A DNA stretch of 64,000 nucleotides. Origin: Escherichia phage LH2. Shown one piece after another: positions 1 through 4,702 of this stretch. Both the position numbers and the translations under genes were made by a program. Every line of letters begins with the position of its first letter. The stretch's first letter is position 1. The stretch lies in the sequence record OQ378934.1. The stretch is one strand, 5' to 3'. The notes beneath the pieces were generated by a model that saw nothing but the letters and a program-made list of their open reading frames with translations, did no database searches and was not told the DNA's origin.

Positions 1-240
1 AAATCCAAATAGAATTCAATTGAATTGTCCATATTGTGATAAGAAAGATTTATCACCATCAACATATAAACGATGGCACGGCGACAATTGCAAAACAAGG
101 TTCAACGACTAGTCTTCGGACGTAGGGTCAAGCGACTCGAAATGGGGAGAATCCCTCCGGGATTGTGATATAGTCTGGACTGCATGGTAACATGCAGCAG
201 TTCATAAGAGAACGGGTTGAGAATTAGCGAGCTCAATCGA
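1..240 (+). mobile_element. 3' portion of a group I self-splicing intron interrupting nrdB (contains the end of an intron ORF followed by a structured, GC-richer segment)
   Basis: Zinc-finger ORF terminates at 112; 113-240 is non-coding and GC-richer; the downstream ORF aligns only to the C-terminal ~170 aa of class Ia RNR small subunit, implying an upstream exon; matches the known T4 nrdB intron arrangement. 3' splice site not pinned down. Confidence 0.45.
2..112 (+). CDS. C-terminal fragment (5'-truncated by window edge) of intron-encoded homing endonuclease, I-TevIII-like, with CxxC...HxxxC zinc-finger tail
   Basis: Frame 2 translation NPNRIQLNCPYCDKKDLSPSTYKRWHGDNCKTRFND-stop; location inside the nrdB intron. 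Confidence 0.4.
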   Translation, partial: NPNRIQLNCPYCDKKDLSPSTYKRWHGDNCKTRFND

Positions 241-750
241 ACATACGGTACCTTTAACTTCCACAAAAACATGGAAATCATGGAAGGTAATGCCAAGATT
301 ATGAAGTTCATTGCTCGTGATGAGCAGCTTCACCTTAAAGGCACTCAATATATTATTCGTCAACTTCAATCCGGTACTGATGGCGATGAATGGGTTAAAA
401 TTGCTCAAGAGTGTGAACAAGAAGCAGTTGATATTTTCATGGAAGTTAACCGCCAAGAAAAAGATTGGGCAGTTCATTTATTTAAAGATGGCGATGTTCC
501 TGGATTAAATACAAATAGCATGTGGAGCTTTATTGATTACTTAACTGTATCTCGTATGAAACAGTGTGGTCTTCCATGTCCAATTACCGATGCTCCGGTT
601 AAACATCCATATCCTTGGATTCGTGAATATCTTAATTCTGATAATGTTCAATCCGCGCCACAAGAAGTAGAACTTTCATCTTACCTTGTAGCACAGATTG
701 ATAATGATGTTGATGATAAAGTTATGATGAGTTTTAAAAAATATTTTTAA
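241..750 (+). CDS. nrdB: Ribonucleotide reductase small subunit NrdB, exon 2 (C-terminal part); 5' boundary approximate
   Basis: Translation ...NMEIMEGNAKIMKFIARDEQLHL...PWIREYLNSDNVQSAPQEVELSSYLVAQID... matches conserved class Ia R2 C-terminal region (compare E. coli [43 protein letters not shown]). Confidence 0.75.
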   Translation, partial: TYGTFNFHKNMEIMEGNAKIMKFIARDEQLHLKGTQYIIRQLQSGTDGDEWVKIAQECEQEAVDIFMEVNRQEKDWAVHLFKDGDVPGLNTNSMWSFIDYLTVSRMKQCGLPCPITDAPVKHPYPWIREYLNSDNVQSAPQEVELSSYLVAQIDNDVDDKVMMSFKKYF

Positions 751-754
751 GGAG

Positions 755-777
755 TGGGCCGCAAGGCCCATTTTATT
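755..777 (+). terminator. GC hairpin (gggccgcaaggccc) followed by atttt; putative nrdB terminator and/or RBS-structuring element for denA
   Basis: 5 bp G/C stem with GCAA loop directly after nrdB stop and between an SD-like ggag and the denA ATG. Confidence 0.3.

Positions 778-2365
<1,588 letters not shown>

Positions 2366-3797: not shown

Positions 3798-4702
<905 letters not shown>

Follow-up and report, generated by a model that had tools for sequence, protein, structure and literature searches.

Does the left end of the window, by which we mean the whole 64,000-nt stretch of Escherichia phage LH2 analysed here (record OQ378934.1), hold the end of a self-splicing intron, where exactly does that intron stop, and in what state is the homing endonuclease that it carries? 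A sequence-only reading of the window had proposed the nrdB intron of T-even phages, with an I-TevIII-like endonuclease, at positions 1-240. From sequence comparison, bases 1-247 are almost certainly the 3′ portion of the self-splicing group I (IA2-type) intron of the T-even phage nrdB gene. This intron interrupts the gene in a subset of T4-like (Tequatrovirus) phages, and an earlier primary description of it, with I-TevIII, is reportedly that of Eddy and Gold in 1991 (Genes Dev 5:1032). The T4 td, nrdB and nrdD introns are self-splicing (PMC2988022), the T-even nrdB intron and I-TevIII have already been described (PMC1865063, PMC2790892, PMC2988022), and later work on them includes that of Robbins et al. 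2007, Wilson and Edgell 2009 and Edgell et al. 2010.

Over window positions 1-1200, megablast retrieves 828 phage records, with HY03 (98.8%), RB3 (98.2%) and T4 (98.0%) as the best matches. The annotations of these three records agree with the proposed intron and its endonuclease: the genes follow in the order I-TevIII, nrdB, denA, rnlA and alc, and nrdB is entered as a two-piece join in the RB3 and T4 records. T4 and HY03 both match bases 1-247 at every position (100% identity). Outside the intron, the window is only ~97% identical to T4 and is therefore not T4 itself; the host genome is another Tequatrovirus. The closest match over 25 kb is 235Ecol030PP, and no locus exceeds 98.1% identity to the window among 10 of the 19 contigs that share an identical exon 2 product and among the phage-record loci. 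A 38-mer with SNPs specific to the window has no exact match in viral_contigs, and exact matching of the DenA protein likewise gave no record for either the 136-aa or the 144-aa form.

The boundary between the intron and the remainder of nrdB is defined by two features:

247, + strand: terminal (omega) G of the intron, with the 3′ splice site between 247 and 248
248-750, + strand: nrdB exon 2, made up of the last two bases of a Cys codon, 166 codons and the TAA stop at 748-750 (PF00268 and record annotation)

The T4 nrdB gene spans 1765 nt, and removal of 598 nt leaves a single ORF of 1167 nt, i.e. 388 codons plus the stop. Only one placement of the intron fits the group I rules, which require a U as the last base of exon 1 and a G as that of the intron, and this junction restores the conserved Cys codon, T/GT, in FYVSFAC of T4. 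The U of the 5′ site and the P1 pairing (GCGU/GCGC) are seen in T4 and RB3 and lie upstream of the window. Among the phages listed in the 25-kb megablast, intronless ones such as IME537 and pSs-1 mostly start to match at 248, with two records (fPS-90) starting at 250. In IME537, the intronless nrdB runs continuously across the junction (...TCTTTCGCAT/GTACCTTTAAC..., also read as ...GCAT/GTACCTTT). The Cys codon and the intronless homologues agree on G247 as the last base of the intron, and the end previously placed at 240 falls 7 nt short.

Exon 2 aligns with positions 174-271 of the 281 positions of PF00268, the RNR small chain (E=1e-11, 45.2 bits against a cut-off of 33.6), in line with the earlier observation that this frame corresponds only to the C-terminal part of the small subunit. 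Its 156-aa product is identical in 19 contigs, namely HY03 and 18 others. Several records, including HY03 and 235Ecol030PP, annotate nrdB as two CDSs, with exon 2 beginning at an internal ATG (window 280); locus L001 (976-1653 and 2780-3250) is one example and L007 another. A spurious in-frame ORF starting with TTG, at 217-750, begins 31 nt ahead of the true splice site. We recommend that nrdB be annotated here as a two-piece join at 247/248 rather than as two genes, and that the ORF tail be named I-TevIII. The significance of the locus goes little beyond its correct annotation.

The intron tail itself contains the following helices of the 3′ core:

90-96, + strand: P6 3′ strand, GCAAAAC, which forms 7/7 pairs with GUUUUGC of the T4 5′ half (outside the window); inside the ORF
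107-111, + strand: P7 5′ strand, GACUA, within conserved element R, from the Rfam alignment; 5/5 pairs with 171-175; overlaps the stop codon
112-121, + strand: P7.1 hairpin, GUC-UUCG-GAC (112-114/119-121); 2/3 pairs changed on both sides
125-138, + strand: P7.2 hairpin, GGGUC-AAGC-GACUC (125-129/134-138); 3/5 pairs changed on both sides
144-149, + strand: P3 3′ strand, GGGGAG, which pairs with CUCCUU of the T4 5′ half (outside the window)
150-164, + strand: P8 hairpin, AAUCCC-UCC-GGGAUU (150-155/159-164); 4/6 pairs changed on both sides
171-175, + strand: P7 3′ strand, UAGUC, within conserved element S (GAUAUAGUC), from the Rfam alignment and the pairing test
180-197, + strand: P9 hairpin, CUGCAUG-GUAA-CAUGCAG (180-186/191-197); 3/7 pairs changed on both sides
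200-213, + strand: P9.1 hairpin, GUUC-AUAAGA-GAAC (200-203/210-213); invariant in 6 sequences
215-238, + strand: P9.2 hairpin, GGUUGAG...CUCAAUC (215-221/232-238); 4/7 pairs changed on both sides

A distant blastn search with bases 92-247 found homologous cores in 871 phage records. Seven sequences were aligned: the window, RB3, the phiTE DNA polymerase intron, a Staphylococcus Twort-like phage, PcaP1EGY, KIL1 and Lak-B4, the five distant cores being ~72-76% identical. Across seven helices with 37 pairs, standard pairs occupy 100% of the 246 cells, and 16 of the 37 pairs are changed on both sides. When the registers are slid by 1-3 columns, pairing falls to 31-41% of cells, a comparison in which the tested structure is favoured because it was derived from the window sequence; the compensatory changes in the distant sequences are the informative part, and the observed covariation score was attained by 0 of 500 shuffles. 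The R and S elements of P7, the guanosine-binding helix, are paired in all seven sequences and are invariant; since P7 and P9.1 never vary in the alignment, covariation is silent on both. The sequence-only reading had named the P7 and P9 pairing elements, together with the terminal G, among the means of checking it, and both elements were located, P9 covarying and P7 invariant.

P1, P2, P4, P5, the internal guide sequence and most of the ORF lie upstream of base 1. For two further helices, the window supplies the 3′ strand. P6 is fully compensated in phiTE (CAAAGGC/GCCUUUG) and in PcaP1EGY (GAUAAGCA/UGCUUAUC), and P3 forms 6/6 pairs in T4 and, through compensatory changes, in phiTE and PcaP1EGY as well. 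Both helices presumably form in LH2's own genome as well, their 5′ strands lying outside the window. The minimum-free-energy fold of 98-247 gives P7.1, P7.2, P9, P9.1 and P9.2 (z=-2.4). Extra helices P7.1 and P7.2 between P7 and P3′ are a hallmark of the IA group I introns, and the hairpins at 112-121 and 125-138 occupy this position and covary.

Rfam model RF00028 matches positions 7-197 with E=1.6e-5 when 1500 nt are searched, at 30.6 bits against a gathering score of 50; the well-aligned part, with high posterior probability, comprises elements R (GGUUCAACGACUA) and S (GAUAUAGUCU), P8 and P9. At the gathering threshold, Rfam returned no matches on the whole window, on the complete RB3 locus or on the complete T4 locus, and the complete T4 intron likewise scores below gathering for RF00028, at 35.7 bits. 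Since a known intron fails the same model, which does not tolerate an inserted ORF or a truncated intron, the threshold test is uninformative rather than negative. The curated model alone does not certify group I membership, and the structural call rests on the alignment obtained in E-value mode together with the direct covariation test. Taken with the complete identity to T4 and the covarying helices, the E-value of the RF00028 match leads us to judge that these observations are not due to chance. A second intron or other structured RNA was found nowhere else in the window at the Rfam threshold.

Upstream of most of these helices, and partly on top of them, lies the end of a reading frame:

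2-112, + strand: final 36 codons of the I-TevIII ORF (aa 234-269 of 269) with the TAG stop at 110-112, from identity to T4 and HY03 I-TevIII and record annotation
26-91, + strand: second zinc finger of I-TevIII, CX2CX13HX3C (C242, C245, H259, C263), read from the sequence

The frame that is open from base 2 translates as NPNRIQLNCPYCDKKDLSPSTYKRWHGDNCKTRFND and ends at the TAG. It is identical to I-TevIII at 36/36 residues in T4, 36/36 in HY03 and 35/36 in RB3. The codons of the finger lie at 26-37 (CPYC), 77-79 (H) and 89-91 (the last C). I-TevIII has two zinc fingers of the type CX2CX12-13HX3C, with C242 and C245 in the second; they bind zinc and are required for DNA binding (Robbins et al. 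2007, PMC1865063). An ORF ending in CPYC...HGDNC had been reported at the start of the window, and frame and motif are indeed present; the description needs the correction that only the second of the two fingers falls within the window, the first (C211/C214) lying upstream, as does the H-N-H domain. The full-length HY03 protein matches HNH_3 (PF13392, E=5e-13), and in T4 the H-N-H domain is deleted.

The reading frame and the ribozyme overlap. The last 23 nt of the I-TevIII ORF (90-112), stop codon included, lie inside the P6′-P7 part of the ribozyme core: P6′ (90-96), J6/7 and the 5′ strand of P7 (107-111) are all contained within the ORF, and the TAG at 110-112 reaches from the end of that strand into the first base of P7.1. 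Because P6′ and the P7 5′ strand lie in the ORF, the RNA element starts at base 90 or earlier and not at the stop codon. This qualifies the earlier description of ~130 nt of GC-richer non-coding sequence. Positions 113-247 are indeed 135 nt without endonuclease or nrdB coding, at a G+C fraction of 0.489; the corresponding values are 0.339 in 1-112, 0.358 in exon 2 and 0.361 in the window overall. The RNA element is nevertheless larger than this stretch, by virtue of the 23-nt overlap with the ORF. A ribosome completing the ORF would presumably have to unwind the catalytic core, which fits the literature on delayed translation of the T4 intron endonucleases, where late promoters and hairpins that sequester the ribosome-binding site impose the delay (PMC2988022).

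For LH2, we infer rather than show that the intron splices, and likewise the condition of its 5′ half and of the endonuclease; several readings have to be weighed. That there is no functional intron here, nrdB being split or decayed and the intervening region either unrelated or no longer able to splice, strikes us as exceedingly improbable. Such a reading could draw on the many records that enter nrdB as two separate CDSs and on an Rfam score under threshold. It has to contend with complete identity to the 3′ part of a T4 intron that is self-splicing in the literature (PMC2988022), with core helices that are intact in every case tested and that covary, with a junction that rebuilds the conserved Cys codon and the reading frame, and with a perfectly conserved exon 2 protein. 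Granting a functional intron, the endonuclease remains to be placed. The sequence-only reading had cautioned that its intactness could not be judged from a truncated ORF, a caution that holds well: T4, with a deleted ORF, and HY03, with an intact one, are both identical to the window over 1-247, so SNPs in the tail cannot tell the state of I-TevIII, and our attempt to infer intactness from them failed for this reason. We consider it probable that the sequence upstream is the long RB3/HY03 intron of ~1091 nt, with an intact 269-aa H-N-H I-TevIII, and autonomously mobile. Of the 19 contigs whose exon 2 product is identical, 10 were examined, and 8 of these have a 269-aa ORF with HNH_3. Among phage records, 118 have the complete 247-nt tail and 85 have the segment that T4 has lost, both counts including duplicates, and copies of laboratory T4 account for many of the short forms. 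The 810-nt ORF is present both in HY03, the best match over 1-1200 (98.8%), and in 235Ecol030PP, the best over 25 kb. Population evidence thus leans to an intact I-TevIII ORF, even if the T4 deletion form is just as identical over 1-247 and degraded close relatives exist.

Those relatives, together with T4, leave some room for a T4-type deletion or an otherwise eroded intron, which we regard as possible but rather unlikely; the ORF tail would then be a remnant, zinc fingers without H-N-H, and the intron would be maintained through splicing, together with trans-homing that the neighbouring mobE drives. In T4, I-TevIII is annotated as defective (97 aa), inheritance of a defunct nrdB intron is known to depend on mobE (PMC2790892), and the ORF is degraded in 2 of the 10 close relatives, contig L008 having no ORF called and L010 one of 87 aa. 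Against such erosion stand the retention of the HNH segment in most intron-bearing records other than T4 and the ~97% identity of the window to T4 outside the intron. A further observation concerns the boundary with exon 2. Compared with HY03, exon 2 has 11 differences in 503 nt, all synonymous, and the intron tail has 0 in 247 nt; the first two of these, at 264 and 267, fall 17 and 20 nt downstream of the splice site, and among the five sequences compared only the window has them. A recombination or co-conversion boundary could explain this sharp change, from 0/247 to ~2% synonymous divergence, as could constraint acting on the ribozyme, and it may simply be the product of structural constraint on the intron combined with ordinary mosaicism. 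That it records very recent homing in which the co-conversion tract was unusually short, or that the unseen upstream part holds a new I-TevIII allele or a swapped catalytic domain joined to a T4-type 3′ half, seems to us very improbable.

If the LH2 intron follows the established group I mechanism, its transcript would fold so that P3-P8 and P4-P6 pack around P7, with the I-TevIII ORF in a loop closed by P6. A free guanosine would cleave the 5′ splice site, G247 would then dock in the guanosine-binding site of P7, and the 3′-OH of exon 1 would attack the 247/248 bond, joining ...GCGU to GUACC..., which would recreate the TGT Cys codon and an intact NrdB of 388 aa. The RB3 enzyme is active, a dimeric H-N-H endonuclease, and I-TevIII makes a double-strand break in intronless nrdB that leaves 2-nt 3′ extensions and leads to homing (PMC1865063). 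With an intact upstream half, the full-length LH2 protein would, like that of RB3, be a dimeric H-N-H enzyme that binds DNA through its two C-terminal zinc fingers; it would cut the intronless nrdB of co-infecting phages, and repair would copy the intron in. With a T4-like deletion, mobE-dependent trans-homing could still give the intron a high frequency of inheritance (PMC2790892).

Two features follow nrdB directly:

751-774, + strand: stable hairpin between nrdB and denA, GGAGUGGGCC-GCAA-GGCCCAUUUU, 10 bp, -16.4 kcal/mol (context)
778-1188, + strand: denA (endonuclease II, GIY-YIG), the downstream neighbour (record annotation and Pfam)

The hairpin comes immediately after the nrdB stop and is followed by a U-rich run; it was not flagged by the terminator scan. 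A match of Rfam L20_leader at 659-785 (E=0.049, 24 bits against 58.7) rests on this hairpin and was rejected as chance. The denA start is given as GTG 754, within the hairpin, in RefSeq T4 (144 aa) and as ATG 778 in X04140 and most records (136 aa). Further along, HY03 and several relatives have an extra ORF of 100-106 aa between pseT.1 and pseT (L013, 7518-7820; L008, 7519-7839) that is absent from the window (~3798-3804) and from AV120 (L014). Its presence or absence is a small indel typical of T-even genome mosaicism.

Introns with homologous cores split the DNA polymerase and other genes in unrelated phages, the 871 records including Staphylococcus and Pseudomonas phages and Lak megaphages. 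Those of phiTE DNA polymerase, PcaP1EGY and the Staphylococcus Twort-like phages share with the window the same 3′ core of P6′, P7, P7.1, P7.2, P3′, P8, P9, P9.1 and P9.2. In phiTE, the end of the annotated HNH ORF falls inside the P6′/P7 region or just ahead of it, and PcaP1EGY has an unannotated ORF ('hypothetical protein', ORF15) in the equivalent place. The loci compared were phiTE (L018) 940-1654 and 1989-2620 and PcaP1EGY (L020) 996-1764; phiTE polA, entered as three DNA polymerase CDSs, appears to hold two insertions of this kind, each with an HNH ORF. Unlike the T-even introns, these elements show only 72-76% nucleotide identity to the window and have different host genes and endonucleases.

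The nrdB introns of T4, HY03 and RB3 are the close counterparts. The T4 intron (598 nt, with defective I-TevIII) has the same insertion site, 3′ splice site and ORF tail; its exon 2 and downstream genes are ~2-3% different from the window, and it carries a 493-nt deletion in the I-TevIII region, upstream of the tail present here, which the LH2 intron may or may not share. The RB3 intron (~1091 nt, active 269-aa I-TevIII) is the same element at the same position, with 6 substitutions and a 1-nt insertion relative to window 1-247. RB3 and 235Ecol030PP differ from the window at 95, 158, 179, 186, 191 and 195, and the window has none of the RB3-type substitutions. In the RB3 type, 186 G>A together with 191 C>U makes a compensated P9 pair, 195 C>U gives a G-U pair, and 95 A>G gives a U-G wobble in P6 and T265A in I-TevIII. 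The HY03 intron (~1091 nt, 269-aa I-TevIII) is again the same element in the same position, and it is identical over 1-247. The element in LH2 is not just similar to the T-even nrdB intron with its I-TevIII; it is that already known, textbook element, and no feature of the window departs from it.
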